Assembly: GCA_964574935.1 (NCBI GenBank)
Contig: CAZNOZ010000001.1
Coordinates: 1,227-65,226, forward strand
Direction of reading: 5' to 3'
Length of the DNA stretch: 64,000 nt
Source: an uncultured Devosiaceae bacterium
GTDB lineage: Bacteria > Pseudomonadota > Alphaproteobacteria > Rhizobiales > Devosiaceae
The notes under the pieces are model-generated. The model was not told the DNA's origin. It saw only the letters and a program-made list of their open reading frames with translations, and ran no database searches. Below, piece after piece: positions 2 to 20,051 of the stretch. The position numbers and the translations under genes were made by a program. Each line of letters starts with the position of its first letter. Position 1 is the first letter of the stretch.

Positions 2-2014
2 TATTCCGACAATGTCGCCGCCGCCCCGCATCTCAACTTCATCCGCAAATCCGCCTGTCACGGCGGCTGGGACTGGAACATCTGCCTGATGCCCACGGGC
101 ATTTACGGCGCGATGGCGCTCAGGCGGTCCCGGCTGGCGCGCATCGACAGCGTCGAAGTGGTCCAGCATCACGCCCCCGACCAGGTCGAAATCGAAATCC
201 GCACCCGCGTCTTCGCGTTCGAGGCCGGCGCGGCAGAACTCACCCATACCGTCGACGGCAGACAGTATGGCGGCACGGTCGAGGTCGTGCCGGGCGACAA
301 CATCTTCACCCACCAGGTCACCATCGCCGAGCCGAAGCTGTGGTGGCCGGCCGGGCAGGGGGAGCAGCCGCTCTACGCCATCGAAACGGAATTCGACGGC
401 GAGCTGACGCGCCGCCGCATCGGCCTCAGGACGCTCCGGGTCGATTGCGACGACGACGAGGTGGGCACCTCGTTCAAGGTCCGCGTCAATGGCCGCGACA
501 TCTTCATGAAAGGCGCCAACTGGGTGCCCGCCGACGCGCTGCCCGCCCGCGTCACCCAGGACGCCGTGCGGCCGTTGCTCGAGGCCGCGGTGGCGGCGAA
601 TTTCAACATGCTCAGGGTGTGGGGGGGCGGCCAGTACGAGCCCGACGACTTCTATGAACTGTGCGACGAACTCGGGCTCCTCGTCTGGCAGGATCTGATG
701 TTCGCGTGCATGCCCTATCCCTCCAATCCCGAGTTTCTCGCCTCGGTGCGCACCGAGGCCACCCAGCAGGTGAGGCGTCTGTCGCATCACGCCTCGATCG
801 CCCTGTGGTGCGGCGACAACGAGGTGATCGGGTCGCTGGAGTGGTACCCCCAGACCCGCCAGAACCGCGACCGCTATGTCGCCAACTACGACCGGCTGAA
901 TTCGCTGTTGATGGAAATCTGCGAGCGGGAGGATCCGGGCCGCCGCTTCTGGCCGTCCTCGCCGTCCGCCGGCTATCTCGAATTTGCCGGCGGCTGGAAG
1001 GACGACACGCGCGGGGACATGCATGTGTGGGACGTCTGGCATTCGGACAGGGATTTCACGGCCTACCGGGACGTGAAGCCCCGCTTCGCGTCCGAATTCG
1101 GCTTCCAGTCCTTTCCCTCGATGCGGCGGATCGAGGCGTTCGCGGCCGCCGAAGACCGCAACCTCTCCGCGCCGGTCATGGAGGCGCACCAGCGCAATCC
1201 GGGCGGCAACGCGCGGATCATCGCGACAATCTGCCGCCACTTCCGGTTCCCGAAGGACTTCGACCAGATGGTCTATCTCAGCCAGATCCAGCAGGGGTTG
1301 GCGCTGCAGACCGCCGTCGAATTCTGGCGCGCCGCCAAGCCGCGCTGCATGGGAGCGCTCTACTGGCAATTCAACGACACCTGGCCGGTGGCCTCCTGGT
1401 CGAGCCTCGAGCATGGCGGCGGCTGGAAGCTCGCCCACTATTTCGCCAGGCGGTTTTTCGCACCGGTCACGGTCGTCGCCATCCCGGATCCCGAGAGCGG
1501 CGAGATCGCGCTGGTGGGGGTGAGCGACCGGGCCGACCCGGCGGTCCTGTCGCTCGAAGCGAAGGCGGTGGGATTCGACGGCCGCGAGCGCCCGCTCGTC
1601 GAAACGCGTGGTGAAGTCACGCCCTATGCGGCGAGCGAGCTGACGCGACTGGCGCCGGGGGCGCTCGATGCCCACGAATTCATGACGTTTTCGTGGGCCG
1701 GGCCGGACGGCGCCGACGCCGGCGACAACGAGCATTTCCCCACACCGTTCAAACGCTACGATCTGCCCGTGCCGGAAATCGCCGCGAGCTGGGAGACGAA
1801 GAAGGGCGAGACGGCGCTGGTGCTGGAGACCGACGAGCCGGCCCTGTTCGTGACCGCCGAAGTGGCGGTGCCGGGGGTCTTTTCGGACAACGCCCTGACG
1901 CTGGTGCCCGGGGCGCCCCGCCGGCTCACCTTCACGCCGACGGGCGGTGCCGTGGACCTCGATGCGCTGCGGGCCTCGCTGGCGGTGCGCAACCTGCGCG
2001 ACAGCTTCGAATGA
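2..2014 (+). CDS. Glycoside hydrolase family 2, beta-mannosidase-like (5'-partial; gene begins upstream of the window)
   Basis: The frame is open from nt 2: YSDNVAAAPHLNFIRKSACHGGWDWNICLMPTG precedes the first Met of ORF 89..2014. GH2 mannosidase-type blocks are present: KLWWPAGQGEQPLY, VNGRDIFMKGANWVPADA, NMLRVWGGGQYEPDDFYELCDELGLLVWQD, ALWCGDNE, FASEFGFQSFP. Confidence 0.8.
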   Translation, partial: YSDNVAAAPHLNFIRKSACHGGWDWNICLMPTGIYGAMALRRSRLARIDSVEVVQHHAPDQVEIEIRTRVFAFEAGAAELTHTVDGRQYGGTVEVVPGDNIFTHQVTIAEPKLWWPAGQGEQPLYAIETEFDGELTRRRIGLRTLRVDCDDDEVGTSFKVRVNGRDIFMKGANWVPADALPARVTQDAVRPLLEAAVAANFNMLRVWGGGQYEPDDFYELCDELGLLVWQDLMFACMPYPSNPEFLASVRTEATQQVRRLSHHASIALWCGDNEVIGSLEWYPQTRQNRDRYVANYDRLNSLLMEICEREDPGRRFWPSSPSAGYLEFAGGWKDDTRGDMHVWDVWHSDRDFTAYRDVKPRFASEFGFQSFPSMRRIEAFAAAEDRNLSAPVMEAHQRNPGGNARIIATICRHFRFPKDFDQMVYLSQIQQGLALQTAVEFWRAAKPRCMGALYWQFNDTWPVASWSSLEHGGGWKLAHYFARRFFAPVTVVAIPDPESGEIALVGVSDRADPAVLSLEAKAVGFDGRERPLVETRGEVTPYAASELTRLAPGALDAHEFMTFSWAGPDGADAGDNEHFPTPFKRYDLPVPEIAASWETKKGETALVLETDEPALFVTAEVAVPGVFSDNALTLVPGAPRRLTFTPTGGAVDLDALRASLAVRNLRDSFE

Positions 2015-2030
2015 GCCGCCGGCCCCGCCC

Positions 2031-2720
2031 ATGAAGCGCTCCGAAGTCAACGAGATCCTCGCTGAGGCCGAGGCCTTCATCGGCTCCTTCGGCTACCGTC
2101 TGCCGCCGTTTGCCTTCTGGACCCCGAACGAGATGCGCCAGCGCCGCGCCGAAATCGGCGCGCTCGTCGAGGGCCGGCTCGGATGGGACGTCACCGACTA
2201 TGGTGAGGGGAAATTCGGCGAGATCGGCCTGACCCTCTTTACGGTGCGCAACGGCCGCACCGCCGATCTAGCGGCCGGCAAGGGCATGCTCTACGCCGAG
2301 AAGATCATGATTTCGCGCGCCGGCCAGGTCGCCCCGATGCACCGGCACGTCGTCAAGGCCGAGGACATCATCAACCGCGGCGGCGGCTCGCTGGCGGTCG
2401 AGCTGTTCGCCTCGACCGATGACGGCTCGATCGACCAACGCGGTCCGGTCACCGTGCCTTGCGACGGCACTTCGCGTCGGCTCGAAGCGGGCGCCACCCT
2501 CGCCCTCGATCCCGGTGCAAGCGTGACCCTGCTGCCCGGGACCTGGCACGCCTTTTGGGGCGAGGGGGCGGACGTGCTGGTCGGCGAGGTCTCGACGGTC
2601 AACGACGATCTCACCGACAACGTCTTTCGCGATCCCGTCGGGCGGTTCCCCGAGATCGTCGAAGACGAGCCGCCCCGCCGGCTGCTGGTCGCCGACTACG
2701 ACACCTGGCTCGCCGGCTGA
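2031..2720 (+). CDS. D-lyxose/D-mannose ketol-isomerase (cupin family, YdaE-like)
   Basis: ATG at 2031, in frame inside ORF 1947..2720 and 16 nt after the upstream stop. The N-terminus MKRSEVNEILAEAEAFIGSFGYRLPPFAFWTP and the cupin metal-ligand blocks APMHRH and GTWHAFWGE fit D-lyxose isomerases. Length 229 aa. Confidence 0.7.
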   Translation: MKRSEVNEILAEAEAFIGSFGYRLPPFAFWTPNEMRQRRAEIGALVEGRLGWDVTDYGEGKFGEIGLTLFTVRNGRTADLAAGKGMLYAEKIMISRAGQVAPMHRHVVKAEDIINRGGGSLAVELFASTDDGSIDQRGPVTVPCDGTSRRLEAGATLALDPGASVTLLPGTWHAFWGEGADVLVGEVSTVNDDLTDNVFRDPVGRFPEIVEDEPPRRLLVADYDTWLAG

Positions 2721-2778: not shown

Positions 2779-5700
2779 TCAGAAGACCGGCGGGTAGTGC
2801 CGGTGGCCGCGCTCCAGGGTGATCCAGCGGGTTTCGGTGAAGGTGCTCAGCGCCCACTTGCCGCCGTGCCGGCCGGTGCCCGAGCCCTTGGCGCCGCCGA
2901 ACGGCACCATCGCCTCGTCGTTCACCGGCGAGCAGTTGATGTGGCACATGCCGGTCTCCAGTTCGCCGGCGATCTTCAGGCCGCGCTCCTCGTCGCGGGT
3001 CATCACGCCGGCGGTCAGGCCGTAGTCGGAGTCGTTGGCGATCCGCACCGCTTCCTCCTCGGTTGCGAAGGGATAGATCGACGTCACCGGCCCAAAAGTC
3101 TCCTCGCGGTAGATCTTCATGGCGTCGGTGACCCCGGTCAGGATCGTCGGCTCGACATAGAGCCCGTCGATCCGCCCACCCAACAGCACCTGCGCGCCCT
3201 TCTCGACGGCGTCGTCGAGCTGGTCCTTGATGCGCGCCACCTGCCGCTCGTTGATGATGGGGCCGATCACATGTGCCTTGTCGACCGCGGGGTCGCCCGT
3301 CTTCAGGGCGGCCGCCTTTTCGACGAACCGGCGCATGAACTCGTCGACGATCGTGTCCTGCACCAGCACCCGGTCGATCGACATGCAGATCTGTCCCTGA
3401 TGCATGAAGGCGCCGAAATTGGCCGCCTGCAGCGCCCGGTCGATGTCGGCGTCGTCGAAGATGATCAGGGCGTTCTTGCCGCCCGCCTCGATGGCGCACT
3501 CCTTGAGCAGGCCCCCCGCCTGGGCGGCGATCTTGCGGCCGACCGGGGTCGAACCGGTGAACGAGATGCCCTTGACCCTGGGATTGGAGATCATCTCGTC
3601 ACCGACCTCGGCGACGGTGTCCCGCGAGCAGCACACAACGTTCAGCACCCCCGGGGGCACGCCCGCCTCCTCGAAGAGCTCGGCGAACAGAAGTCCCCCG
3701 ATCACCGGGGTCTCCTCGGAGGGCTTGAGGACGACCGTGTTGCCTGCCGCCAGCGCGAACGCCATGCCGCGCGAGGTCAGGATCATCGGAAAGTTCCACG
3801 GCGAGATCACCGAGATCACGCCCATCGGGCGCCTGACCGCCAGCGACACCTTCAGATGCTCGGAGGGCAGGATCTCGCCAACCTCCTCGTAGCAGGCGGC
3901 GGCGGCGGCGCGCCACACCGAGTGCACATAGCCGGTCTCGAACATGCCCTTGCCGAACCAGCCGCCGCCCTCGGACGTGATGTGGCGAACGATCTCGTCC
4001 TGGCGCTTCATGTAAAGGTCGGCGATCTTGAGCATGTAGTCGGCACGCGCGGTGTGCGGCAGGTCCGACCATTCTCTGAACGCCGCGTCGGCGGCATCGA
4101 TGGCATTGGCGACGTCGATCCGGTTGGCGTCCGGCGCCTGGCAATAGACTTGCCCGGTCGAGGGATTGAGGTCCTCGAAAGTGGCCCGGGGCCGCACCCA
4201 TTCGCCGCCGATATAGTGGCCCTTGGGTTCGTACTCGATGTGCAGCTGTCCTGCGGCAACGTTCATGTCTGCCTCCCGTGTGTGCTGGGGTTGTTCGTCT
4301 TGCGCTTGTGACGCCAGGGCGGCGGTGCTGGCCAGCCCGCCCTCGGGGGCGCTCAACGGGATGTTGGCGCCGTTGATCAGGGTCGCGCTTTCGCTGAGAA
4401 GATAGGCGATGACGTGGGCGGCGTCCGGCGCCGTCGGTTCGTGACCGTTGATCAGAGGATGCGCGTCCGCCCCGTTTCCCTTGGCGAGTGCGCCGTTGGT
4501 CGGGCTGACGACATTGAGCCGCACGCCGCGGGCCTTCCAGCGGTCGCGCGCCTCGAAAGCGGTCGCCGCCATCGCCGCCTTGGAGAATTCGTAGCCGCGG
4601 CGGCCGGCGATCCCGTGCGCGGCGCAGAATTCGGCGACGCTGTCGAATTCGATGGCGCCGACTTCCTCGATCGTCATGTCGGTGTTGCGCCAGTCGGTGT
4701 CGATCGGGGCCGACAGATGGACGACCGAGGCGCCCTCGCTCAGCCGGTCGGCGATCCGTTCGGCGAAATAGCGCTGGCCGACATAGTTGACCTTGATCAC
4801 CGCGTCGGCGGGCATGTCGGCGGGCAGGTCCGCCATCGCCGCCAGCCCGTCGACCGAACCGGGCAATTCGTCGACCGCCCGGTCGATGGACTGCTTCTCG
4901 GTGAAATCGGCTTTCACGAACTGGTCGATGTGGTCGTGGCTTTCATAGAGGTCGACGCCGATCACCCTGGCGCCGGAGCGCTTGAGCGCCCGTGCCGTCA
5001 TCGCGCCGATGCCGCCGGAGACGCCGGTGACCACGATCGCCTTGCCGCGCAGCACCTTGAGCTGTTCGGTAATGTCCGCGTAGCGGCCCTCGACGGTTGC
5101 GACGGCGGCCGCGGGTGTCAGCCCGGGCGCCGGAACCGACGGCGCCGGGGCGCGAGCCGGATGCGGCGCGGCGACGCCGAGATAGGCGGCCTGCACCGCC
5201 GGGTCGGACCGCAATGCCGCCGCCGAGCTGGCCGCGCTGACGCGACCGTTCTCGATCAGATAGCCCCGGTCGGCGATTGCCAGGGATTGATTGGCGTCCT
5301 GCTCGACCAAGAGGATGCCGGTGCCGTCCTTGCGTATGCGCTTGAGGGCCCGGAACAGCTCCGTGCACAACACCGGGGCCAGCCCCAGGGTCGGCTCGTC
5401 CAGCATCAGGATCTTCGGCGCCGACATCAGGGCCCGCCCGATGGCGACCATCTGCTGTTCGCCGCCGCTCATGGTGCGCGCCATTTGCTGCTTGCGCTCC
5501 TTGAGCGCCGGGAACAGCGAATAGACATGGGCCAGGGCGGCCTTTTCGGTCGCACGGGCCCGCTGCGCGAAGGCGCCGAGGTCGAGATTCTCCTCGACCG
5601 TGAGCTCGCCGAACAGCCCGCGCCCCTCCGGAACCAGGGTCAGGCCGGCCTCGACGATTTCGTGCGGCTTGAGGGCGTGCAAACTGACGCCGTCGATTGC

Positions 5701-5877
5701 GATTTCGGCCCCCGGCGCCATCGGCACCAGTCCGGCGATGGCCTTCAGAAGCGTCGTCTTGCCGGCCCCGTTGGCGCCCAGGATGACGACGATCTCGCCC
5801 TCGCCGACGCCCAGAGAGACATCCAGCAGCGCGCGGTGATGGCCGTAGGAGACCGAGATCGACTTCGCCTCAAGCAT
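2779..5877 (-). CDS. Tri-domain fusion ORF: LivF-type ABC transporter ATPase + short-chain dehydrogenase/reductase + NAD(P)-dependent aldehyde dehydrogenase
   Basis: One uninterrupted reading frame starting at the ATG at 5877, which overlaps the livG stop by 8 nt.
- Residues ~1-234 (nt 5176..5877): LivF-like ATPase with Walker A GANGAGKTT, signature MSGGEQQM, Walker B ILMLDEPTLGLAP and the usual C-terminal AAYLG.
- Next: a Pro/Ala-rich linker.
- Next (~nt 4330..5055): an SDR domain of ~250 aa with TGVSGGIG and YEFSK.
- Last (nt 2779..4266): a complete ~495-aa ALDH with FTGSTPVG, IEAGGKN, GQICMSIDR and the C-terminus HRHYPPVF.
There is no stop codon at either junction. Confidence 0.7.
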   Translation of the reverse strand: MLEAKSISVSYGHHRALLDVSLGVGEGEIVVILGANGAGKTTLLKAIAGLVPMAPGAEIAIDGVSLHALKPHEIVEAGLTLVPEGRGLFGELTVEENLDLGAFAQRARATEKAALAHVYSLFPALKERKQQMARTMSGGEQQMVAIGRALMSAPKILMLDEPTLGLAPVLCTELFRALKRIRKDGTGILLVEQDANQSLAIADRGYLIENGRVSAASSAAALRSDPAVQAAYLGVAAPHPARAPAPSVPAPGLTPAAAVATVEGRYADITEQLKVLRGKAIVVTGVSGGIGAMTARALKRSGARVIGVDLYESHDHIDQFVKADFTEKQSIDRAVDELPGSVDGLAAMADLPADMPADAVIKVNYVGQRYFAERIADRLSEGASVVHLSAPIDTDWRNTDMTIEEVGAIEFDSVAEFCAAHGIAGRRGYEFSKAAMAATAFEARDRWKARGVRLNVVSPTNGALAKGNGADAHPLINGHEPTAPDAAHVIAYLLSESATLINGANIPLSAPEGGLASTAALASQAQDEQPQHTREADMNVAAGQLHIEYEPKGHYIGGEWVRPRATFEDLNPSTGQVYCQAPDANRIDVANAIDAADAAFREWSDLPHTARADYMLKIADLYMKRQDEIVRHITSEGGGWFGKGMFETGYVHSVWRAAAAACYEEVGEILPSEHLKVSLAVRRPMGVISVISPWNFPMILTSRGMAFALAAGNTVVLKPSEETPVIGGLLFAELFEEAGVPPGVLNVVCCSRDTVAEVGDEMISNPRVKGISFTGSTPVGRKIAAQAGGLLKECAIEAGGKNALIIFDDADIDRALQAANFGAFMHQGQICMSIDRVLVQDTIVDEFMRRFVEKAAALKTGDPAVDKAHVIGPIINERQVARIKDQLDDAVEKGAQVLLGGRIDGLYVEPTILTGVTDAMKIYREETFGPVTSIYPFATEEEAVRIANDSDYGLTAGVMTRDEERGLKIAGELETGMCHINCSPVNDEAMVPFGGAKGSGTGRHGGKWALSTFTETRWITLERGHRHYPPVF

Positions 5878-6604
5878 CGGGTTCCCCGATATACGCGCGT
5901 ACAACTTCACGGTCGGCGAGCACCGCATCCGGATCGCCATCGGCGATCTTTCGGCCCGCGTTCATCACCACGCAGCGGTCACACAGGGCGCGGATCGCTT
6001 CGATGACATGCTCCACCAGCACAATAGTGTACCCTTGGGACTTTAACCGCTTGATTAACCCCACGGCGATGTTGAGTTCCGCCGGATTGAGCCCGGCCAG
6101 CCACTCGTCGAGCAGCAAAACCTCCGGCTTGCGGGCGATGGCGCGCGCCAGCTCGATGCGTTTCTGGTCGATATAGGTCATCTGCGGCGGGTATTCGCTG
6201 CCGCGCCCGCCCAGTCCCACAAGATGCAGGAGCTCGTCGGCGCGCCGGTCGGCCGCCGCGCCCCAGAGGTGATCGGGGCCGAACGCCATGCCGGCGACGA
6301 CGTTTTCCTGCGCCGACATGCCGTGCAGCGCTCTGACGAGCTGAAAGGTGCGCCGCACACCACGATCCGAGATGCGATGGGCGGGCAGGCGGGTCAGCGG
6401 CTCGCCGTGCAGCCTGATTTCGCCGCCGGTCGGCTTGAAGACGCCCGATATCAGGTTGAGCATGGTCGTCTTGCCCGACCCGTTGGGGCCGATCAAACCC
6501 AGGATTTCGCCTTCGTAGAGCTCGAAGCTGACGTCGTTGACCGCGATCAGGCCCCCGAACGCCTTGCGCGCCTTTTCGACCGTGAGAACCGACGAGGCAC
6601 TCAT
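5870..6604 (-). CDS. livG: Branched-chain/HAAT-family ABC transporter ATP-binding protein LivG
   Basis: The ATG at 6604 overlaps the livM stop (ATGA). MSASSVLTVEKARKAFGGLIAVNDVSFELYEGEILGLIGPNGSGKTT carries the Walker A motif; LLLDEWLAGLNP is Walker B. The upstream 277 codons of ORF 5870..7435 are a shadow of livM. Confidence 0.9.
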   Translation of the reverse strand: MSASSVLTVEKARKAFGGLIAVNDVSFELYEGEILGLIGPNGSGKTTMLNLISGVFKPTGGEIRLHGEPLTRLPAHRISDRGVRRTFQLVRALHGMSAQENVVAGMAFGPDHLWGAAADRRADELLHLVGLGGRGSEYPPQMTYIDQKRIELARAIARKPEVLLLDEWLAGLNPAELNIAVGLIKRLKSQGYTIVLVEHVIEAIRALCDRCVVMNAGRKIADGDPDAVLADREVVRAYIGEPDA

Positions 6605-9735: not shown

Positions 9736-11208
9736 TCAGATGGCGTAGTTCTGTGGGCCGGATTGGACGGTGATCCATCTGAGCTCGGTGAACTCGTCGA
9801 TGGCGGCTCTGCCACCGAACCTGCCGTAGCCCGAGGCCTTGACGCCGCCGAAGGGCATTTGCGCCTCGTCGTTTATGGTCGCGCCGTTGATATGGCAGAT
9901 GCCGCTCTCGATACGCAGGGCGACCTTCCAGGCGCGGCCGACATCGCGGCTGAAGACGGCCGCGCTCAGGCCGTATTCGGTGTCGTTGGCGAACGCGATG
10001 GCCTCCTCCTCGTCGCCGACCCGGATCACCGCGGCGATCGGGCCGAAGGATTCCTCGGCGTAGATGCGCATGCTGGGCGTCACGCGATCGAGGATGGTCG
10101 CGTCCAGAAACGCACCCTCGGTTCTGCCGCCGGTCACCAGCGTCGCGCCCTTGCCCACCGCGTCGTCGATCAGTGAGCGTACGCGCTGTGCGGCGCTGAC
10201 GTCGATCATCGACCCGAGCCGGCAGGCGGGGTCGCTCGGATCGCCGGCGACGATATCCTGCGCCCTGGCGGCCAGCAATTCAACAAACTCGTCGGCGACC
10301 GCCTCGTCGACGATCAGCCGCTCGGTGGCCATGCAGATCTGGCCCTGATGGTAAAACGAACCGAACGTCGCCGCCTCGACGGCGGCCTCGATATCCGCGT
10401 CGTCGAGCACGACCAGCGGCGCCTTGCCGCCGAGTTCGAGCAGGCACCGCTTGACGTATTTGGCGGCGATCTGGGCGATCAGGCGTCCGACCCGGGTCGA
10501 GCCGGTGAAGGTGATGCGGCGGACCGCCGGATGCGCGATGATCGCCTCGACGATTTCGGTCGCGTTGTCCGGCGCGTTGGCGATGAAATTGACGGTGCCG
10601 GGCGGCAGGCCGGCATCGCGCAGTACCTCGACGACGAGCCGATGGGTGCGCGGGCACAACTCGGAGGCCTTGAGCACCACCGTGTTGCCGCACGCCAGCG
10701 GCATTGCCAGCGCCCTGACGCCGAGGACGACCGGCGCGTTCCAGGGCGCCATCGAGAACACCACCCCGCAGGGCTGACGGATCGCGAACGCCATCGCATC
10801 GGTCCGGTCGGTGGGGATCACCTCGCCGAGGACCTGGGTGGTCATCGCCGCGGCCTCGCGCAGCATGTCGGCGGCCAGGGCGCAATTGAACTCGGCCCAG
10901 CCAGCGGTGCCGCCCGTCTCCGCGATGATCGCCTCGGCGAAGTCGGCGGTGCGCTCGACCACCAAGTCGGCCGCCCGGTTCAGAAGCCGGCGGCGTTCGC
11001 CGGGTCCGCTCCGCGACCAGGCGGGAAAGGCGCCGGCCGCGGCGTCGACAGCGGCGCGCGCGTCCTCGACATCGGCCGCCGAGGCCCGGGTGGCGAGCGC
11101 CGCGGTCACCGGATTGAAGCGTTCGAAGGTCGCATTGTCCCCGGCGGCCAGATCGCCGTCGTTGATCAGCAACGGGACATCGTGCACCGGCGCCTTCTCC
11201 TTGAGCAT
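9736..11208 (-). CDS. NAD(P)-dependent aldehyde dehydrogenase, vanillin/benzaldehyde/salicylaldehyde dehydrogenase-like
   Basis: ATG at 11208 (MLKEKAPVHDVPLLINDG). ALDH motifs present: FTGSTRVG, LLELGGKAP (catalytic Glu), GQICMATER (catalytic Cys), PFGGVKASGYGRFGG. The C-terminus WITVQSGPQNYAI resembles aromatic aldehyde dehydrogenases. An alternative upstream ATG at 11277 is possible. Confidence 0.85.
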   Translation of the reverse strand: MLKEKAPVHDVPLLINDGDLAAGDNATFERFNPVTAALATRASAADVEDARAAVDAAAGAFPAWSRSGPGERRRLLNRAADLVVERTADFAEAIIAETGGTAGWAEFNCALAADMLREAAAMTTQVLGEVIPTDRTDAMAFAIRQPCGVVFSMAPWNAPVVLGVRALAMPLACGNTVVLKASELCPRTHRLVVEVLRDAGLPPGTVNFIANAPDNATEIVEAIIAHPAVRRITFTGSTRVGRLIAQIAAKYVKRCLLELGGKAPLVVLDDADIEAAVEAATFGSFYHQGQICMATERLIVDEAVADEFVELLAARAQDIVAGDPSDPACRLGSMIDVSAAQRVRSLIDDAVGKGATLVTGGRTEGAFLDATILDRVTPSMRIYAEESFGPIAAVIRVGDEEEAIAFANDTEYGLSAAVFSRDVGRAWKVALRIESGICHINGATINDEAQMPFGGVKASGYGRFGGRAAIDEFTELRWITVQSGPQNYAI

Positions 11209-11313: not shown

Positions 11314-12270
11314 TTGGCTATGATTTATAGAAATTTGGCACTTGTCCCACCGAGCCCGGACCAAATGGCGCAATTCGCAACCGGAACCTCACGACGCACC
11401 ATCGCGGCGTTGCGCCTGGACTCCGGCCTGCAGGCGCGGCGCATGGCGTTCGATCGCCTGCTGCCCGCCTCCGACTACGCCGCGGTGCTCCTGACGGGCG
11501 GCAAAGCGTCGGTCGCCTCCGGCGAGGATGAGCTGCAGCTCACCGCCCCGGCGATCGGCTGGCTGCCGATCCGTCCCGGCGCCGCCCTGACCCAAGCGCC
11601 CGGCTCACCGGGCTACCTGCTGGGCCTAAGCGAGCAGGCCATCGTCGAGGCCACGATGGACAGCGTCGACGCCCCCTTCCTGCGCCACATGGCGGGGCGC
11701 GCCTTCCGCATCGACACCGCCGGGCTCGCCGAGGAGATCGCGGCGCTGTCCGTTGCAGTGGAGGGAATCGAGCGGGAAACGCGCCATGCCGATCGCGGCT
11801 CCCGGACGCTGCTGACGGCCTATGTGCGCATCATCGTGGTGGGGCTGTGGCGGCTGTCGGGCATCGAGCCCGGTGGCGCCACCGCGGTCGGGCAGGCACG
11901 CGGCGTGCTTATCGGGTTCCGGGAACTGGTGGAGATTCACTTCCGGGACCATTGGCGCATTCGCGACTACGCGGCCGCCGTGGGCGTCAGCCACGACCGG
12001 CTGCACGCCGTATGCACCCGCGATCTGGGCCGCACGCCGCTGTCGCTCGTCCATGACCGCCTGAATTTCGAAGCGCGCCAGCACCTGACGCGCGCCGCCC
12101 TGAACGTGCAGCAAATCTCGCACGCCCTGGGATTCCGCGACCCCGCCCACTTCAGTTCCTTCTTCAAGCGCCTCAACGGCGTTGGACCGTCGTATTTCCG
12201 GCAGGCGGCGCGAACCGACGAGGCCGGCGGCGCGCTCGGCGCCAGCGCCAACTACGCCGACTGGCCGTGA
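11314..12270 (+). CDS. AraC-family transcriptional regulator (PobR/aromatic-responsive type?), divergent from the ALDH-liv operon
   Basis: The C-terminal double HTH reads IRDYAAAVGVSHDRLHAVCTRDLGRTPLSLVHDRLNFEARQHLTRAALNVQQISHALGFRDPAHFSSFFKR. The start is uncertain. The first ~25 codons from 11314 are AT-rich with atypical third positions. ATG 11365 (MAQF) or ATG 11443 (MAFDRLL) may be the true start. Confidence 0.8.
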   Translation: MAMIYRNLALVPPSPDQMAQFATGTSRRTIAALRLDSGLQARRMAFDRLLPASDYAAVLLTGGKASVASGEDELQLTAPAIGWLPIRPGAALTQAPGSPGYLLGLSEQAIVEATMDSVDAPFLRHMAGRAFRIDTAGLAEEIAALSVAVEGIERETRHADRGSRTLLTAYVRIIVVGLWRLSGIEPGGATAVGQARGVLIGFRELVEIHFRDHWRIRDYAAAVGVSHDRLHAVCTRDLGRTPLSLVHDRLNFEARQHLTRAALNVQQISHALGFRDPAHFSSFFKRLNGVGPSYFRQAARTDEAGGALGASANYADWP

Positions 12271-12396
12271 CAATTGGGGCCCGGCATGGACGAATTTTTC
12301 CGTGACGCGGCGGCGCGGCGAAAGCTATGACAGACCTCACCGGCCCGCTGGGGTGACCGGTCAACGACAAGAACCGAGTTGAACAAGGAGGCCACA

Positions 12397-13515
12397 ATGA
12401 GCACCAAGCCGCCATTTCGGGCCGATCACGTCGGCAGCTTTTTGCGCCCCGCGGCGCTCGCCGCCGAACGCGAGAAATTCGCCGCCGGTCAGATCACCGG
12501 CGAAGAGTTGCGCGCAACCGAGGACGTCCATATCCGCGAACTGGTTCGCAAGCAGGAGGACGTCGGCCTGCAGGGGATCACCGACGGTGAGTTTCGGCGC
12601 GAATTCTTCCACGTCGATTTTCTCGAAAAGCTCAAGGGCGTCACCGTCACCTACGGGGAATTCAAGGTCGCGTTTCGCCGCGACGACGGCACCGAGGTCG
12701 GGTTTCGGCCGCCCACCATGCATGTCGACGCCAAAATCGAGCGCGACAAACCCATCCAGGGCCCCGATTTCGACTTTCTGAAATCCGTCGTCACCAAGAC
12801 CCCGAAGGTTTCGATTCCGGCGCCGTCCATGCTGCATTTCCGGGGCGGCCGCAAAGCGATCTCGGAAACCGTCTATCCGGATCTCGAGAAATTCTTCGAG
12901 GATCTGACCGCCGCCTACCGCGCCGAGATCGGCGATCTGGCCGATCGCGGCTGCCGGTATCTGCAGCTTGACGACACCAATCTCGCCTATCTCTGCGACC
13001 CCGAGATCCGCGAGACCACGCGCGCCCGCGGCGACGACCCCGACGATTTGACGCGGCTGTATTCCCGCCTGGTCAACGACGCCATCCGCGACCGGCCCGC
13101 CGACATGACGATCGGGGTGCATCTGTGCCGCGGCAATTTCAAGAGCGCCTGGGTGTCGAAGGGCGGCTATGAGCCGGTCGCCGAGATCCTGTTCAACGAA
13201 ATGGCGATCGACGCCTTCTTCCTCGAGTATGACGACGAGCGCTCCGGCGATTTTGCGCCGCTTCGCTTCATGCCCAAGGACAAGATGGTGGTGCTGGGGC
13301 TGATGAGTTCGAAGAAGCCCAGGGTCGAGCCCGCGGACGAAATCAAGACGCGCATCGAGGAAGCGACGAAATACGTCGATCTCGACCAGTGCTGCCTGTC
13401 GCATCAATGCGGGTTCTCCTCGACGGCGCACGGCAACGAGCTGAGCGAGGACGACCAGTGGGTCAAGCTTGCCCGCTGCGTTGAAGTCGCAAACGACGTC
13501 TGGGGCCAGGGCTAA
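12397..13515 (+). CDS. Cobalamin-independent methionine synthase C-terminal-domain-like protein (MetE-like, single-domain ~372 aa)
   Basis: AAGGAG lies 6 nt upstream of the ATG at 12397. MSTKPPFRADHVGSFLRPAAL, ITDGEFRREFFH, YLQLDDTNLAYLCD and a C-terminal CLSHQCGF (Zn-ligand region) fit the Meth_synt_2 fold. Confidence 0.75.
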   Translation: MSTKPPFRADHVGSFLRPAALAAEREKFAAGQITGEELRATEDVHIRELVRKQEDVGLQGITDGEFRREFFHVDFLEKLKGVTVTYGEFKVAFRRDDGTEVGFRPPTMHVDAKIERDKPIQGPDFDFLKSVVTKTPKVSIPAPSMLHFRGGRKAISETVYPDLEKFFEDLTAAYRAEIGDLADRGCRYLQLDDTNLAYLCDPEIRETTRARGDDPDDLTRLYSRLVNDAIRDRPADMTIGVHLCRGNFKSAWVSKGGYEPVAEILFNEMAIDAFFLEYDDERSGDFAPLRFMPKDKMVVLGLMSSKKPRVEPADEIKTRIEEATKYVDLDQCCLSHQCGFSSTAHGNELSEDDQWVKLARCVEVANDVWGQG

Positions 13516-13585: not shown

Positions 13586-14575
13586 CTACTGGCCGCCGGC
13601 GCGGGCCGGGGTAGCGCGGTCGGGACGCGCCGTCTCCGGGTGCGGGACCGCGGAGCGGATTTCAGCAACCAGCACGTCGGCCGCCACGCTGGGAAGTCCC
13701 TCTGGACGGGTCGTCAGGCCCACCGGTCCGGAAGCGATGCCGGCTTCGAACGGCAGCTCGACCAAACCCCCCTCTCCGATCTCGGCGGCAACCACCGACC
13801 GCGAGATGATCCAGATCGCGTCGGAGGATTTCAGCAGGCTGATCGAAAAGACGGGAGAAGCCGACTCGACGACGTCACGCAGTTCGCCAATGCCATTGGC
13901 GATCAGCGCCCGGTCGACCTCTGGACGGATGGCCGACCCGGCCGGCGGCAGCACGACCGGGAACTCCACGATGCTGGCGAGCGTGCCGCTGCCGGCAAGG
14001 GCGAGGGGATGGCCGGTGCGCACCACGAAGACGACGCGCTCCGAGTACAGCCGCTCGAACTGCAGCCCGGCCATTTCGGCGGCCTCCGCCATTCGTCCCA
14101 CAACGAAATCGAGTTGGCCGGCGCGCAGCTCCGCCAGCAGATAGACCGCAGGTCCGACCGCGACGCGAATTCTGGCCCGAAGCCCGTTGCCTCTGGCGGC
14201 GAGCACGGCTGCCGGCACCACTTGCCCGGCCACCGTCGGCAGCGCGCCCACCGAGACCGTGGCCAGGCTTTGTCGGTCGCTGGGATCGACGCTGGCGATC
14301 GCCCGGCGCAATTCGGAGACGGCGGGTCCGGCGTGGCGGCGGAACGCTTCTCCTTCCGCCGTCAGCCGCACCCCGGCCCGACTGCGCTCGAACAGCTGCA
14401 CCCGCAGGGTCGCTTCGAGCTCGCCGATCGTCTTGGAGACCGCGGGCTGCGTGACCCCCAGTGCCCGCGCCGCGCCGACGAAGCTGCTGCGGCCGGCGAC
14501 CTCGAGAAAGCAGTTCAGATGCCGGAACCGGATCCGGCTGCCGAGGGTGGCGGGAGGCTGCAACGCCATATCCAT
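13586..14575 (-). CDS. pcaQ: LysR-family regulator of protocatechuate catabolism, PcaQ-like
   Basis: GSRIRFRHLNCFLEVAGRSSFVGAARALGVTQPAVSKTIGELEATLRVQLFERSRAGVRLTAEGEAF closely resembles the PcaQ N-terminal HTH. The gene is divergent from pcaD. The start is ATG 14575 or 14569. Confidence 0.88.
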   Translation of the reverse strand: MDMALQPPATLGSRIRFRHLNCFLEVAGRSSFVGAARALGVTQPAVSKTIGELEATLRVQLFERSRAGVRLTAEGEAFRRHAGPAVSELRRAIASVDPSDRQSLATVSVGALPTVAGQVVPAAVLAARGNGLRARIRVAVGPAVYLLAELRAGQLDFVVGRMAEAAEMAGLQFERLYSERVVFVVRTGHPLALAGSGTLASIVEFPVVLPPAGSAIRPEVDRALIANGIGELRDVVESASPVFSISLLKSSDAIWIISRSVVAAEIGEGGLVELPFEAGIASGPVGLTTRPEGLPSVAADVLVAEIRSAVPHPETARPDRATPARAGGQ

Positions 14576-14583
14576 TTGGTTAT
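14568..14583. promoter_or_regulatory. Candidate PcaQ/LysR operator (imperfect inverted repeat ATATCC-N4-GGTTAT)
   Basis: ATATCCATTTGGTTAT at the pcaQ 5' end, facing pcaD. The right half, GGTTAT, is the reverse complement of the ATAACC half-site reported for PcaQ boxes (ATAACC-N4-GGTTAA). The left half matches 4 of 6 positions. Confidence 0.3.
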
Positions 14584-14653
14584 GGAAACATGCCACAATT
14601 TCACTTTTCATTCGAAAATGGAATACCTATTCTGACATACCAAGAGGGGCCAA

Positions 14654-15443
14654 TTGCAATTTGCACGCGTCAATTCAACCACCTTGTGCCACTCCGTCGT
14701 GCGGGCCGGGGGCGATCGGGGGTGGCTGGTTTTCGTCAATTCCCTGGGCACGGACCACCGCATCTGGGAGCCGGTGGCGGCGGCGCTCACACCGGGCTGG
14801 AACGTCTTGACCTACGACAAGCGGGGGCACGGACTGTCGGACACCGGGAGCGCGCCCTATGCCATGGACGACCATGTCGACGACCTCGCCGGGCTGCTGG
14901 CGCATCTGGACATATCGCGCGCCGCGGTTTGCGGGCTATCGGTCGGCGGAATGGTGGCGCTTGGCCTGGCGGCGCGCCATCCGGACCGCGTCAGCGCATT
15001 GATCCTGTGCGATACCGGCGCGCGGATCGGCGACGTCGAGTTGTGGAACGCCCGCATCGAGGCGATCCGGACCCGGGGCATGGCGGCGGTTGCCGACGCG
15101 GTGCTCGAGCGCTGGTTCACCGAGCCGTTCCGGGTCCCCGACAATCCCGTCTTCGCCGGCTACCGCAACATGCTCATGCGGACCGACCCGCAGGGATATG
15201 CCGGCACCATCGCCGCCATTCGCGACACCGACCTGACCGATCTCGCCGGCACGCTGACGGTGCCGACGCTGTGCGTGGTCGGCGAGCACGACCTCGTCAC
15301 GACGCCCGCCGCCATGGGCGAGTTGGCGGCGCTGATCGGGGGAGCGCGGCTCGAGATCATCGCCGACGCCGCTCACCAGCCGCAGATCGAACAGCCACGG
15401 GCGCTCGCGCGCCTCATTTCGAGTTTTCTGGAGGATGCCGCCC

Positions 15444-15454
<11 letters not shown>
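14654..15454 (+). CDS. pcaD: 3-oxoadipate enol-lactonase
   Basis: TTG start preceded by GAGGGG. MQFARVNSTTLCHSVV, LVFVNSLGTDHRIW, nucleophile elbow GLSVGG, alpha/beta hydrolase of 266 aa, first gene of the pca operon. Confidence 0.88.
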
Positions 15455-16584
<1,130 letters not shown>

Positions 16585-16585
<1 letters not shown>

Positions 16586-17199
16586 TGGTCCAGGATCTGG
16601 GTCGCCTCAAGGAATCGCCCTCGCAGACCGCCGGCCCTTACGTCCATATCGGGCTGACGCCGAACCATGCCGACATCAACGGGATCTATGGGGAGGATCT
16701 CGGCAAGGCGATGGTCAGCGACGAGACCAAGGGCGAGCGCATCACCATCACCGGACGGATCTTCGACGGGTCCGGATCGGTGCTCCGCGACGGCGTGGTG
16801 GAGATCTGGCAGGCCGACGCCGCGGGGCTCTACAACAGCCCCTCCGAGTTGCGCGGCGACGCCGACCCCAATTTCACCGGCTGGGGCCGGACCGGCGTCG
16901 ACTGGGAGACCGGCCAGTACCGCTTCGAGACGATCAAGCCCGGCCGCGTGCCGTTTCCCGACGGCCGGATGCAGGCCCCCCACGTCACCTTCTGGATCGT
17001 GGCCAGGGGAATCAATATCGGCTTGCAGACGCGAATGTATCTCGGCGACGAGGCAACGGCCAACGCCGAGGACCCGGTGCTGACCCGCATCGAATTGCAG
17101 GTGCGCGTGCCCACGCTGATCGCGGCGCGGGACGGCGATACCTACACGTTCGACATCCACCTGCAGGGCGAGAACGAAACCGTCTTCTTCGACATCTGA
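16585..17199 (+). CDS. pcaG: Protocatechuate 3,4-dioxygenase alpha subunit
   Basis: The ATG overlaps the pcaH stop (TGATG). MVQDLGRLKESPSQTAGPYVHIGL, VEIWQADAAGLY, APHVTFWIVARGI. Length 204 aa. Confidence 0.92.
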
Positions 17200-17207
17200 G
17201 GTGCGCG

Positions 17208-18068
17208 ATGGCCGCTTTCGTGCCGCTAGCCGAGGCCCTCGGGTCCTATCTGCACGATGGTGACAGCGTCGCCTTCGAGGGCTTCACGCATCTGATCCCG
17301 CACGCCGCCGCCCACGAGGCGATCCGCCAGGGGCGCCGGGACCTGACCCTCATCCGCATGACCCCCGACATCATTTACGATCAGATGATCGGCATGGGCT
17401 GCGCGAGGAAGCTGGTGTTCTCCTACGCGGGCAATCCCGGTGTCGGGCTCCTGCGCCGGCTGCGCGACGCCGTCGAGAAGGACTGGCCGCGCGCCATCGA
17501 GATCGAGGAACACTCCCACGCGGCGATGGCCAACGCCTATGAGGCCGGCGCCGCGGGGCTGCCCTCGGCGTTCTTTCGCGGCTACCGCGGCGTCGAGCTC
17601 GCAACCGTCAATCCCAACATCAAGTCCGTCACCTGCCCATTCACCGGCGAGGAGCTGGCGGCGGTGCCCGCCGTCAGGCCCGACGTGGCGATCATCCACG
17701 CCCAGCGGGCGGACCGGCGCGGTAACGTGCTGGTCGAGGGGATCGTCGGGGTCCAGAAGGAAGCGGTGCTCGCCGCTGGCCGGGCCGTGGTCACGGTCGA
17801 GGAGGTCGTCGACGACGTCACCGACGTCCATCCCAATGCCTGCGTGTTGCCGCACTGGACAATCACCGCGATTTGCGAGGTGCCTGGCGGCGCCCATCCG
17901 AGCTACGCCCACGGCTACTACGACCGCGACAACGCGGCCTATCTGGAATGGGACGGGATTTCCGCCGACCGCGAGGAATTCCAGACCTGGATGGAGCGCC
18001 ATGTGCTCGGCGCGACCCCGGACGTGTTCGCCGGGCGCGTCGCGCACCTGCGGCGGAGGGCGGCGTGA
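17208..18068 (+). CDS. pcaI: 3-oxoadipate:succinyl-CoA transferase subunit A (GctA-like CoA-transferase family)
   Basis: MAAFVPLAEALGSYLHDGDSVAFEGFTHLIPHAAAHEAIRQGRRDLTLIRMTP. Length 286 aa. The assignment rests on its position between pcaG and pcaJ/pcaF. Confidence 0.82.
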   Translation: MAAFVPLAEALGSYLHDGDSVAFEGFTHLIPHAAAHEAIRQGRRDLTLIRMTPDIIYDQMIGMGCARKLVFSYAGNPGVGLLRRLRDAVEKDWPRAIEIEEHSHAAMANAYEAGAAGLPSAFFRGYRGVELATVNPNIKSVTCPFTGEELAAVPAVRPDVAIIHAQRADRRGNVLVEGIVGVQKEAVLAAGRAVVTVEEVVDDVTDVHPNACVLPHWTITAICEVPGGAHPSYAHGYYDRDNAAYLEWDGISADREEFQTWMERHVLGATPDVFAGRVAHLRRRAA

Positions 18069-18841
18069 GCGATTTCACCCCCGACGAGATGATGACAATT
18101 GCCGCCGCGCGGGCGCTCAAGACCGACGATGTCGTCTTCGTGGGCATCGGGGCGCCGTCGGCGGCCTGCAATGTGGCGCGCCTCACCCATGCCCCCGACA
18201 TCACGCTGATCTACGAGAGCGGTACGATCGGGACGGCGCCGTCGGTGCTGCCCCTGAGTATCGGCGACGGCGAGCTGTGTGAAACCGCCGTGACCACGGT
18301 GGCGGTGCCGGAGATGTTCCGCTACTGGCTGATGGGCGGCCGGATCACGGTCGGCTTCCTGGGGGCCGCTCAGCTCGACCGGTTCGGCAACATCAACACG
18401 ACCGTCATCGGCGAGTACGCACACCCCAAGGTGCGCCTGCCGGGCGGTGGCGGGGCGCCCGAAATCGCCGCGTCATGCGGTGAGGTCTTCATCACCATGA
18501 AGCAGTCGACGCGCGGGATGGTCGAGAAGATCGATTTCATGACCTCCTTCGGCCACGGCGCGGGGGGCGACGCGCGGCGGAAACTCGGCCTGACGACCGC
18601 CGGGCCGACGCTGCTGATCACGGATCTGGCGATCTGGAAACCGGACCCGGAAACCAAGGAATTCACGGTCACCAGCCTGCATCCGGGCGTCACGCGGGGC
18701 GAGGTCGAGGCGGCTTGTGCCTGGCCGGCGCAATTCGCCTCCGAGCTGGACGAAACGCCGCCGCCGACGGCACTCGAGATCGACACCCTGCGCGACCTGC
18801 AGGCGCGGTCGAAAGCGGCGCACGAGGGAAGGGCGGCCTGA
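18065..18841 (+). CDS. pcaJ: 3-oxoadipate:succinyl-CoA transferase subunit B
   Basis: The GTG start overlaps the pcaI stop (GTGA). [39 protein letters not shown] and IYESGTIG contain the catalytic Glu region of the CoA-transferase beta subunit. Confidence 0.82.
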
Positions 18842-18842
18842 G

Positions 18843-20051
18843 ATGGCCGAAGCCTACATCTGCGACTACATCCGCACACCGATCGGGCGCTACGGCGGCG
18901 CGCTGGCGCCGGTTCGCACCGACGATCTGGCGACGGTCCCGATCAAGGCGCTGATGGCGCGGCATCCCGGGCTCGACTGGGCGGGTGTCGACGAGGTGAT
19001 CCTGGGTTGTGCCAACCAGGCCGGCGAGGACAATCGAAACGTCGCCCGCATGGCGCTTCTGCTGGCCGGGCTGCCGGCAGAGGTGCCGGGCATCACCCTC
19101 AACCGCCTCTGCGCCTCCGGAATGGACGCGGTGATCGCGGCCGCCCGGGGGATCCGCGCCGGAGAGATCGAGCTGGCGATCGCCGGCGGCGTCGAATCGA
19201 TGTCGCGCGCGCCGTTTGTCAGCCCCAAGGCCGAGACGGCGTTTGCCCGCCAGGCCGAAGTCTACGACACCACGATCGGCTGGCGGTTCGTCAATCCGGT
19301 TCTGAAAGCCCAGTACGGCATCGATTCGATGCCCGAGACCGGCGAAAACGTCGCCGAGGAATTCGGCATCGGCCGCGCCGACCAGGATGCATTTGCCCTC
19401 AGGTCGCAGCAGCGGGCCGCCGTCGCGCAAGAAAGCGGCCGCATGGGTGCCGAGATCATACCGGTGAGCGTGCCGCAGCGCCGGGGCGATCCGATCACGG
19501 TGGACCTCGACGAACATCCGCGCGCCGACACGAGCCTCGAAAAGCTGGCCGCGCTGCCGACCCCGTTCCGCGAAGGTGGGTCCGTCACCGCGGGCAATGC
19601 GTCCGGCGTCAACGATGGCGCGGCGGCGCTGATCGTGGCCTCGGAGGCGGCCATGCAAGCGCACGCGCTCAGCCCCCTGGCGCGCGTCGTCGGCGCCGCC
19701 AGCGCCGGCGTGCCGCCCCGGATCATGGGGCTGGGACCGCTCCCCGCGACCAAGAAGCTGTGCGCCCGGCTCGGACTGACGCCCGCCGACTTCGACATCG
19801 TCGAGCTCAACGAGGCCTTCGCCTCCCAGGCGATCGCGGTGCTCAGGGAGCTCGGTCTTCCCGAGGCCGCCGAGCATGTCAATCCGAACGGCGGGGCCAT
19901 CGCGCTCGGCCATCCGCTGGGCATGTCGGGGGCGCGGATTGCCGGCACCGCGGCCTTTGAACTCAACGCAAAGGGCGCGCGGCGGGCCCTGGCGACGATG
20001 TGCGTCGGGGTGGGGCAGGGCGTCGCGATCGCTCTGGAGGCGGCGCGATGA
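18843..20051 (+). CDS. pcaF: 3-oxoadipyl-CoA thiolase
   Basis: [41 protein letters not shown] (active-site Cys), [27 protein letters not shown]. Length 402 aa. Confidence 0.92.

Follow-up and report, generated by a model that had tools for sequence, protein, structure and literature searches.

A gene joining a LivF-type importer ATPase, a divergent short-chain dehydrogenase and an aldehyde dehydrogenase in an uncultured Devosiaceae bacterium, and its place in a LivF-ALDH fusion family with a conserved, probable internal start

In an uncultured Devosiaceae bacterium, a single minus-strand gene joins a LivF-type ATP-binding cassette (ABC) ATPase, a short-chain dehydrogenase/reductase (SDR) and an aldehyde dehydrogenase (ALDH). 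The window, that is, the whole stretch of DNA analysed, comprises 64,000 nucleotides of contig CAZNOZ010000001.1, and its features are given in Table 1. The fused gene is the last of an AraC-controlled operon in the order aromatic-type ALDH, binding protein, LivH, LivM, LivG, fused gene. Its stop-free open reading frame (ORF) extends from position 5940 to 2779 and would encode 1,053 amino acid residues if counted from the first ATG. The ATG at position 5877, which overlaps the livG stop by 8 nt and was also picked by independent gene callers, gives 1,032 residues. The preliminary description of this DNA reported one uninterrupted LivF-SDR-ALDH ORF of 1,032 codons, and this was confirmed by the ORF calls and by the Pfam order, in which ABC_tran is followed by weak SDR models and then by a full-length Aldedh. 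All the motifs quoted in that description were located: AAYLG at residues 230-234, TGVSGGIG at 284-291, YEFSK at 429-433, IEAGGKN at 796-802 and GQICMS at 828-833. Unlike free-standing LivF proteins of about 235 residues, the ORF runs 798 codons past AAYLG without a stop.

The N-terminal domain contains the LivF motifs GANGAGKTT, MSGGEQQ, ILMLDEP and AAYLG, whose residues are invariant in 59 fused relatives, and it lies alongside LivG, two BPD_transp_2 permeases and a Peripla_BP_6 binding protein, which is the context of a HAAT importer. At the C-terminal end, positions 1-461 of the 461-position Aldedh model were covered with 536 bits. The ALDH catalytic set GQICMS, IEAGGKN and PWNFP (catalytic Cys, general-base Glu and oxyanion Asn, respectively) and the cofactor motif FTGSTPVG (GxxxxG) are present and invariant among fused relatives (n = 59). 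The best PDB match of the fused ALDH was salicylaldehyde dehydrogenase 6qhn (E 4.9e-120), followed by 4-hydroxybenzaldehyde, benzaldehyde and vanillin dehydrogenases, while every NCBIfam ALDH equivalog scored below its cutoff.

The genome is evidently metagenome-derived, and at 67% G+C long ORFs are common, so that a missed stop, a frameshift or a chimeric assembly might have joined three genes. Contigs of six assemblies made separately, from four sequencing runs and two Joint Genome Institute metagenomes and thus from different runs and projects, encode the same protein; over the gene they differ by 0-2 substitutions and zero indels, with both junctions unchanged. An orthologue from other samples, P0002 (loci L007 and L008), is 90% identical and has the same three domains. 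When stops were compared at its locus, as the preliminary description had proposed, the orthologue was found to read through, and the indels of 6 and 2 codons that separate its linkers from those of the window are both in frame. G+C at third codon positions is 0.89 in the fused frame. Against this orthologue (synonymous divergence dS ~0.43), the ratio of nonsynonymous to synonymous rates (omega) was 0.124 for the whole gene, 0.11 for LivF, 0.12 for the SDR and 0.11 for the ALDH, and 0.13 and 0.55 for linkers 1 and 2, respectively. An artefact is thereby effectively refuted. The reading frame is kept, with purifying selection acting within it on each of the three domains; the fusion is a genuine, selectively maintained gene.

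According to the preliminary description, the catalytic motifs are retained in all three domains, which is correct for LivF and the ALDH but only in part for the SDR. Pfam gave only weak matches to adh_short, adh_short_C2 and Epimerase, all at ~34 bits. On NF009092 of NCBIfam (coniferyl-alcohol dehydrogenase, cutoff 242 bits) the SDR domains of the window and of L007 scored 178.5 and 182 bits, both below the cutoff, which was passed by nine free-standing SDR relatives with 279-347 bits. In a protein search the best matches were free-standing SDRs of ~261 residues with 29-37% identity. The nearest solved structures are 3alpha-hydroxysteroid dehydrogenase/carbonyl reductases, with 3alpha-hydroxysteroid dehydrogenase 2dkn as the top Foldseek match (template modelling score 0.75). 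A separate AlphaFold model of the domain showed a confident SDR fold, with a predicted local distance difference test score (pLDDT) of 87.9, except at residues 204-216 of the modelled segment. In the multiple alignment the domain retains TGxxxGxG, the Asn of VNY, and the Tyr and Lys of YxxxK (YEFSK). The column of the catalytic Ser holds Ala, and the position just before it is a Ser ('HLSAP' vs 'NLASL' or 'VSSN'); NxAG is replaced by 'MAD'. The PG motif is lost by a 3-residue deletion ('SPGPVxTP' to 'SPTNG'), the loop after it, which is the substrate loop, is shortened and predicted disordered, and 'VDGG' has become 'LSAPEGG'. Judged from these comparisons, the SDR derives from the CalA-type coniferyl-alcohol dehydrogenase family and has diverged strongly, which makes its alcohol-dehydrogenase activity uncertain.

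Four loci from Rhizobiaceae, Paracoccaceae and Chromatiales metagenome-assembled genomes (MAGs), L011, L012, L014 and L035, contain the same operon, including the upstream second ALDH, but differ from the window in having livF, aldh and sdr as three separate genes and a LivF with a disordered tail of 144-173 residues. Their SDRs are canonical, with 279-300 bits on NF009092, and each sdr is located downstream of aldh, not between livF and aldh. Pairwise identities among the four loci are 64-74% for LivF, 62-71% for ALDH and 68-76% for SDR, whereas the window is 60-64%, 57-68% and 36-40% identical to them over the same three parts. The faster divergence of the SDR and the downstream position of sdr in these relatives indicate that the SDR was relocated and fused, changed rapidly and is now held constant. 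It has no start of its own: the positions matching the N-terminus of its relatives are GTG-275, with an anti-Shine-Dalgarno pairing energy of +0.1 kcal/mol, or non-start codons. The SDR would thus be made only as part of the LivF polypeptide, and since this start-less domain is under purifying selection, the LivF-SDR polypeptide is evidently made and matters.

A LivF fused to an ALDH is not in itself unusual. At 90% identity, two-domain LivF-ALDH proteins make up at least 118 clusters, which bear general names such as 'aldehyde dehydrogenase family protein' or 'ALDH / ABC-type branched-chain amino acid transport ATPase', and the rare part is the SDR insertion only. Like the window gene, they consist of an N-terminal LivF and a C-terminal aromatic-type ALDH, are encoded last after SBP-LivH-LivM-LivG (SBP, substrate-binding protein), have an AraC regulator, and keep a Met and a Shine-Dalgarno (SD) sequence at the ALDH boundary. 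Where they have a linker of 9-120 residues, the window gene has an inserted 240-residue SDR domain, which among the matches examined was found in two protein clusters only, P0001 and P0002 (best 120 word-index matches). No further three-domain protein was present among the top 150 representatives of a library clustered at 50% identity (1.8 billion clusters), an absence that is not proof because such a library hides cluster members. A word-index search with the isolated SDR segment missed P0001 and P0002 themselves, in which that segment is present exactly or at 90% identity, so SDRs inside long proteins can escape it and absence there is weak evidence. Scanning metagenome contigs with the SDR domain gave no match, in a collection evidently without these contigs. 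No described fusion of LivF or another ABC ATPase with an ALDH was found in the literature searched.

In 29 species-representative genomes livF is directly followed by this type of ALDH gene, as one ORF in 6 and as separate genes in 23. Hyphomicrobium sp. CS1BSMeth3 carries the fused state, and Bradyrhizobium jicamae, Shinella and Comamonas testosteroni the split one. Fused genes occur at at least 5-6 separate places among unfused ones in a tree of the ALDH domain, which is a rough neighbour-joining tree without support values. When one and the same pair has been fused independently several times, this is classic evidence of two proteins working together. P0173 (823 residues), in which a BPD_transp_2 permease is fused to an ALDH 52% identical to that of the window, is a second, independent kind of transporter-ALDH fusion. 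Taken together, the conserved livF-aldh adjacency, the repeated LivF-ALDH fusion and the permease-ALDH fusion support the view that ALDHs of this clade are functionally coupled to the importer. The window gene belongs, as an elaborated form, to a LivF-ALDH fusion family that is uncharacterised, and of the two findings the wider family and its conserved internal start carry more weight.

Several further arrangements were seen among these modules. In Pseudorhodoplanes MAGs (L093:8335-10008 and L094:8335-10008) a LivM permease and a LivG ATPase are fused into 557 residues directly upstream of LivF-ALDH, which reduces the transporter to SBP, LivH, LivM::LivG and LivF::ALDH. Microvirga tunisiensis Lmie10 has its LivF divided between two frames (L017:8644-9476), and LivF and an ALDH are fragmented in L095 (5334-6057 and 9523-10265); the modules are otherwise similar, and frameshifts, pseudogenes or assembly errors might explain the breaks. 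P0175 (5,578 residues), a giant protein of the representative library, has four stretches that match the query, among them an ALDH domain (residues 1362-1806). P0209 and P0184 were considered as transporter fusions and rejected, being tandem ALDHs.

In L026 and L023 LivF ends with '...AAATA*' and the ALDH starts 15 nt further on at 'aaggag...ATG SDLSMLINGL'. Their sisters L037 and L039 read through into the same 'M SDLSMLINGL', the difference being essentially one in-frame stop. Such pairs are what a neutral read-through would produce: the livF stop is lost (with the SDR gene relocated here in the case of the window), adjacent and translationally coupled frames are joined, the free ALDH does the work, and its link to LivF is merely tolerated. 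The same explanation would account for the fused state being polyphyletic and in the minority (6 of 29) and for the ALDH SD and ATG being kept in every fused lineage.

The retained start was analysed in the window gene and across the family. ATG codon 538 is homologous to the starts of separately encoded ALDHs, and is preceded by GGGAGG, whose anti-SD pairing energy of -10.3 kcal/mol is the strongest among the in-frame ATGs of the gene and equal to that of the starts of the binding-protein gene and livG. GGGAGG is kept in L007 despite changed flanking residues. In 118 two-domain fusions the column aligned with the ALDH start holds Met in 114 and Val in 2. The linkers before it are of near-random composition (~3.3-3.5 bits per site), with the exception of positions -4 and -3, which stand at ~2 bits and are mostly Q/G/E followed by E. 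These residues correspond to CAG-GAG, which contains AGGAG 6-12 nt before the ATG. Over 11 independent fused lineages the mean anti-SD energy was -7.7 kcal/mol, compared with -2.9 +/- 0.7 kcal/mol for random codons in the same genes, and none of 200,000 resamplings reached the observed value (P<5e-6). The fused genes probably still initiate internally, giving a free ALDH besides the fusion.

We nevertheless consider it unlikely that the fusions are neutral. An SDR with neither start codon nor SD but with an omega of 0.12 requires the LivF-SDR polypeptide to be made and to matter. The frame is held over the linker indels and over the linkers of very different length in the diverse fused clade, in which the other linker positions are randomised. 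The permease-ALDH fusion, and the long LivF tails described below that lie beside aldh, suggest joint action.

In the full-length AlphaFold model the LivF domain has a pLDDT above 90, and disorder (pLDDT <50) is predicted at residues 237-266 and about 512-545. LivF and ALDH are set apart by 303 residues including the folded SDR, compared with the short linkers of the two-domain fusions. The model has a predicted template modelling score of 0.50, which is uninformative on inter-domain packing, and it under-predicts the SDR, a region covered by two sequences only, for which the separate model was used instead.

A LivF subfamily that is 58-66% identical to the window LivF (L011-L014, L035, L040; proteins P0219-P0316) bears C-terminal tails of 130-450 residues (L011:9416-9859, L012:9415-9846, L013:3681-4181, L014:9416-9877, L035:2986-3498, L040:9415-9933), and aldh directly follows the tailed livF in L011-L040. 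The tails are of low complexity, with the recurring motifs '(V/I)E(V/I)YR(R/K)' (often duplicated), 'L..IE.AA..AR' and 'DLVxRA...AHVA..RK' and in many cases a Lys-rich end; a Pfam scan of the tails found no domain. They might act as docking peptides and so be the fusion's equivalent without a covalent bond.

C-terminal domains are also found on the ATPases of other ABC importers, such as MalK, MetN, ModC and OpuA; in the MalK/MetN type, the domain binds an effector and inhibits the ATPase. The SDR and ALDH lie in the same position, C-terminal to the nucleotide-binding domain, as the regulatory domains of importer ATPases. They might accordingly act mainly as sensors of NAD(H), aldehyde or product that gate ATP hydrolysis so that uptake never exceeds oxidation, with no channelling. 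The SDR, which keeps its dinucleotide motif and fold and has lost catalytic and substrate-loop features, shows the pattern of a ligand-binding pseudoenzyme. The ALDH, in contrast, has every catalytic residue and is constrained as much as free ALDHs, ordinary enzymes occupy the same operon position in unfused relatives, and the Pfam scan gave no regulatory-domain homology. A purely regulatory appendage therefore seems to us quite improbable.

Table 1. Position of the fused gene, its domains and motifs, and the surrounding genes in the window
Feature	Position	Strand	Remarks
livF::sdr::aldh fused gene	2779..5877	(-)	1,032 codons + TGA stop
LivF-type ABC ATPase domain, residues 1-234	5176..5877	(-)	Pfam ABC_tran E 4e-29
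Walker A	5752-5778	(-)	LivF motif
Signature MSGGEQQ	5452-5472	(-)	LivF motif
Walker B	5392-5412	(-)	LivF motif
AAYLG end	5176-5190	(-)	LivF motif
Linker 1, residues 235-270	5068..5175	(-)	Pro/Ala-rich, predicted disordered; pLDDT <50 for residues 237-266; 6-codon in-frame indel vs L007
Divergent CalA-type SDR domain, residues 271-512	4342..5067	(-)	NF009092 178.5 bits; AlphaFold2 pLDDT 87.9; omega 0.12
TGVSGGIG	5005-5028	(-)	SDR motif
'MAD'	4825-4842	(-)	SDR motif
VNY	4777-4794	(-)	SDR motif
'HLSAP'	4705-4722	(-)	SDR motif
YEFSK	4579-4593	(-)	SDR motif
'SPTNG'	4492-4512	(-)	SDR motif
Linker 2, residues 513-537	4267..4341	(-)	Poorly conserved except 3' end; low pLDDT; 60% amino acid identity and 2-codon in-frame indel vs L007
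Internal SD-like GGGAGG	4272..4277	(-)	5 nt upstream of ATG-538
ATG codon 538, ancestral ALDH start	4264..4266	(-)	Probable internal initiation site; homologous to separately encoded ALDH starts
Aromatic-type ALDH domain, residues 538-1032	2779..4266	(-)	Pfam Aldedh E 8.5e-161; omega 0.11
Asn in SPWNFP	3787-3804	(-)	ALDH motif
KPSEETP	3706-3726	(-)	ALDH motif
Glu in IEAGGKN	3472-3492	(-)	ALDH motif
Cys in GQICMS	3379-3396	(-)	ALDH motif
livG ATPase, 244 residues	5870..6604	(-)	Stop overlaps livF start by 8 nt
livM permease, 322 residues	6601..7569	(-)	
livH permease, 288 residues	7566..8432	(-)	
Periplasmic binding protein, 401 residues	8495..9700	(-)	Peripla_BP_6
Free-standing ALDH heading operon	9736..11208	(-)	Vanillin/salicylaldehyde-dehydrogenase-like; start uncertain (ATG 11208 or GTG 11187); Aldedh E 9e-153
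Divergent AraC-family regulator	11314..12270	(+)	HpaA-like
Short MetE-like methyltransferase	12379-13515	(+)	Meth_synt_2; NF005085 470 bits, above cutoff; between AraC and pca cluster
pca cluster	13586-20051		
LysR regulator	13586-14611	(-)	pca cluster
pcaD	14654-15454		pca cluster
pcaC	15435-15833		pca cluster
pcaH	15830-16585		pca cluster
pcaG	about 16590-17199		pca cluster
pcaIJ CoA-transferase	about 17200-18841		pca cluster
pcaF thiolase	about 18850-20051		pca cluster
GH2 beta-mannosidase-like gene and D-lyxose isomerase	89-2720	(+)	Converge on 3' end of fused gene

The ALDH at the head of the operon is closer still to aromatic aldehyde dehydrogenases than the fused one (6qhn E 2.6e-176; vanillin dehydrogenase 9ihb E 7.8e-168). 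The module of AraC regulator and ALDH/SBP/LivHMGF (+SDR) recurs elsewhere, and the AraC-transporter arrangement is found in L091 and L095. A complete protocatechuate/beta-ketoadipate cluster, pcaD-pcaC-pcaH-pcaG-pcaI-pcaJ-pcaF with a LysR regulator, lies 3-10 kb away. It is conceivable that the MetE-like protein encoded between the AraC regulator and this cluster demethylates methoxylated aromatics such as vanillate. On the other side, the GH2 and D-lyxose isomerase genes are kept in the same arrangement at the L007 locus, but probably have nothing to do with the aromatic module. Scanning the window for Rfam families and tRNAs gave no match.

Pairs of enzymes of the kind joined here are known as separate proteins. 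MolA/MolB, encoded by the molRKAB operon of Xanthomonas citri, and CalA/CalB of Pseudomonas sp. HR199 are NAD-dependent aryl-alcohol dehydrogenases followed by aryl-aldehyde dehydrogenases, which convert monolignols to hydroxycinnamic acids and are the characterised way into monolignol catabolism (PMC11393088). That study set its threshold at >50% identity to MolA/CalA and MolB. The pairing of alcohol and aldehyde dehydrogenase is the same as in the window, where the SDR is linked to it through the name of family NF009092 with a score below the cutoff. The difference is that MolA/MolB and CalA/CalB are separate soluble proteins and are paired with the outer-membrane channel MolK, not with an ABC importer. 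CouPSTU of Rhodopseudomonas palustris is a binding-protein-dependent ABC importer for lignin-derived phenylpropenoids that is clustered with catabolic genes; it carries no enzyme on its ATPase, and its substrates are acids (coumarate, ferulate) and not alcohols or aldehydes (PMC3610893). In fusions of SulP anion transporters with carbonic anhydrases, as cited in PMC6458275 from Felce & Saier 2004, an enzyme acting on the substrate is joined to the transporter, and such fusions, together with syntenic unfused genes, were taken as evidence of functional coupling. These fusions differ from the window gene in that the transporter is secondary, the enzyme is another one, and the fusion is to a membrane protein and not to an ABC ATPase.

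The aromatic-type ALDHs, the CalA-type ancestry of the SDR, the AraC regulator, the pca cluster and the Mol/Cal and Cou precedents lead us to infer that an aromatic alcohol or aldehyde is taken up and then oxidised to the corresponding acid. We favour, with moderate confidence, a selected fusion that tethers the oxidation enzymes to the importer ATPase through disordered linkers, while internal initiation adds free ALDH protomers. The importer would take up a lignin-derived aromatic alcohol or aldehyde, and the tethered enzymes, beside the transporter, would turn it into the acid. This would then be converted to protocatechuate and enter the adjacent beta-ketoadipate (pca) pathway. ALDHs need to be dimers or tetramers. 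With one tethered ALDH per transporter, the free protomers initiated at ATG-538 would complete the dimer or tetramer, a step that rests on general ALDH and ABC stoichiometry. The SDR may still oxidise an alcohol with altered specificity, or its main role may now be to bind NAD(H) or to act as a spacer. Physical channelling of the substrate at the transporter exit is a plausible hypothesis.

Two proposals of the preliminary description are modified by this analysis. The consecutive oxidation of alcohol to aldehyde to acid is a good reading of the ancestry of the two enzymes, a CalA-type SDR and an aromatic-type ALDH, but the activity of the SDR is made doubtful by the loss of its canonical features. 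The uptake-metabolon is supported in the coupling of ALDH to importer. It is not a simple three-domain metabolon, since the ALDH retains its own ribosome-binding site and start and is probably made as a free protein too.

Several points weigh against a selected tether with free ALDH protomers. That 23 of the 29 genomes keep livF and aldh separate means that tethering is dispensable for function. The retained SD and ATG could be partly inherited from recent unfused ancestors and not selected in the fused state, because fusion recurs and toggles with one stop codon. Given the lost Ser position, NxAG glycine and PG motif and the sub-cutoff score, the step from alcohol to aldehyde may not be catalysed by the SDR. 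For the binding protein, searches of the PDB and NCBIfam gave only distant matches to binders of amino acids or urea and weak ones to binders of aromatic acids, so with no close characterised relative it permits no substrate call. None of the feruloyl-CoA genes to be expected for the full coniferyl-alcohol route turned up beside the operon, where no search was aimed at them. The accumulation of the 110-kDa polypeptide and its assembly with LivHMG are predictions.

A wider reading joins these observations, and we regard it as tentative and rather doubtful. ABC importers that dock the first catabolic enzyme on the transporter would be widespread and so far unrecognised, the enzyme being held on the ATPase subunit through a covalent LivF-ALDH or permease-ALDH fusion or by long LivF tails. 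One gene would give the tethered enzyme and, from a conserved internal start, the free protomers that complete the oligomer on the transporter. In the window, an aryl-alcohol dehydrogenase captured between LivF and ALDH would have turned into a non-canonical domain, one that possibly senses NAD(H) and couples transport to the redox state.

Transport metabolons, in which an importer hands its substrate over to an enzyme, are much discussed and have seldom been testable in bacteria. The importer-ALDH pair is a natural experiment of this kind, with fused, unfused and tail-bearing states in related and partly culturable bacteria, often one stop codon apart. What is imported is probably a toxic aromatic aldehyde or alcohol derived from lignin, whose oxidation right at the point of entry would clearly benefit the cell, and the system might be of use in engineering lignin-valorising strains. 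The conserved internal start, if used, would be a clean bacterial case of one gene giving both a tethered and a free subunit of one enzyme.

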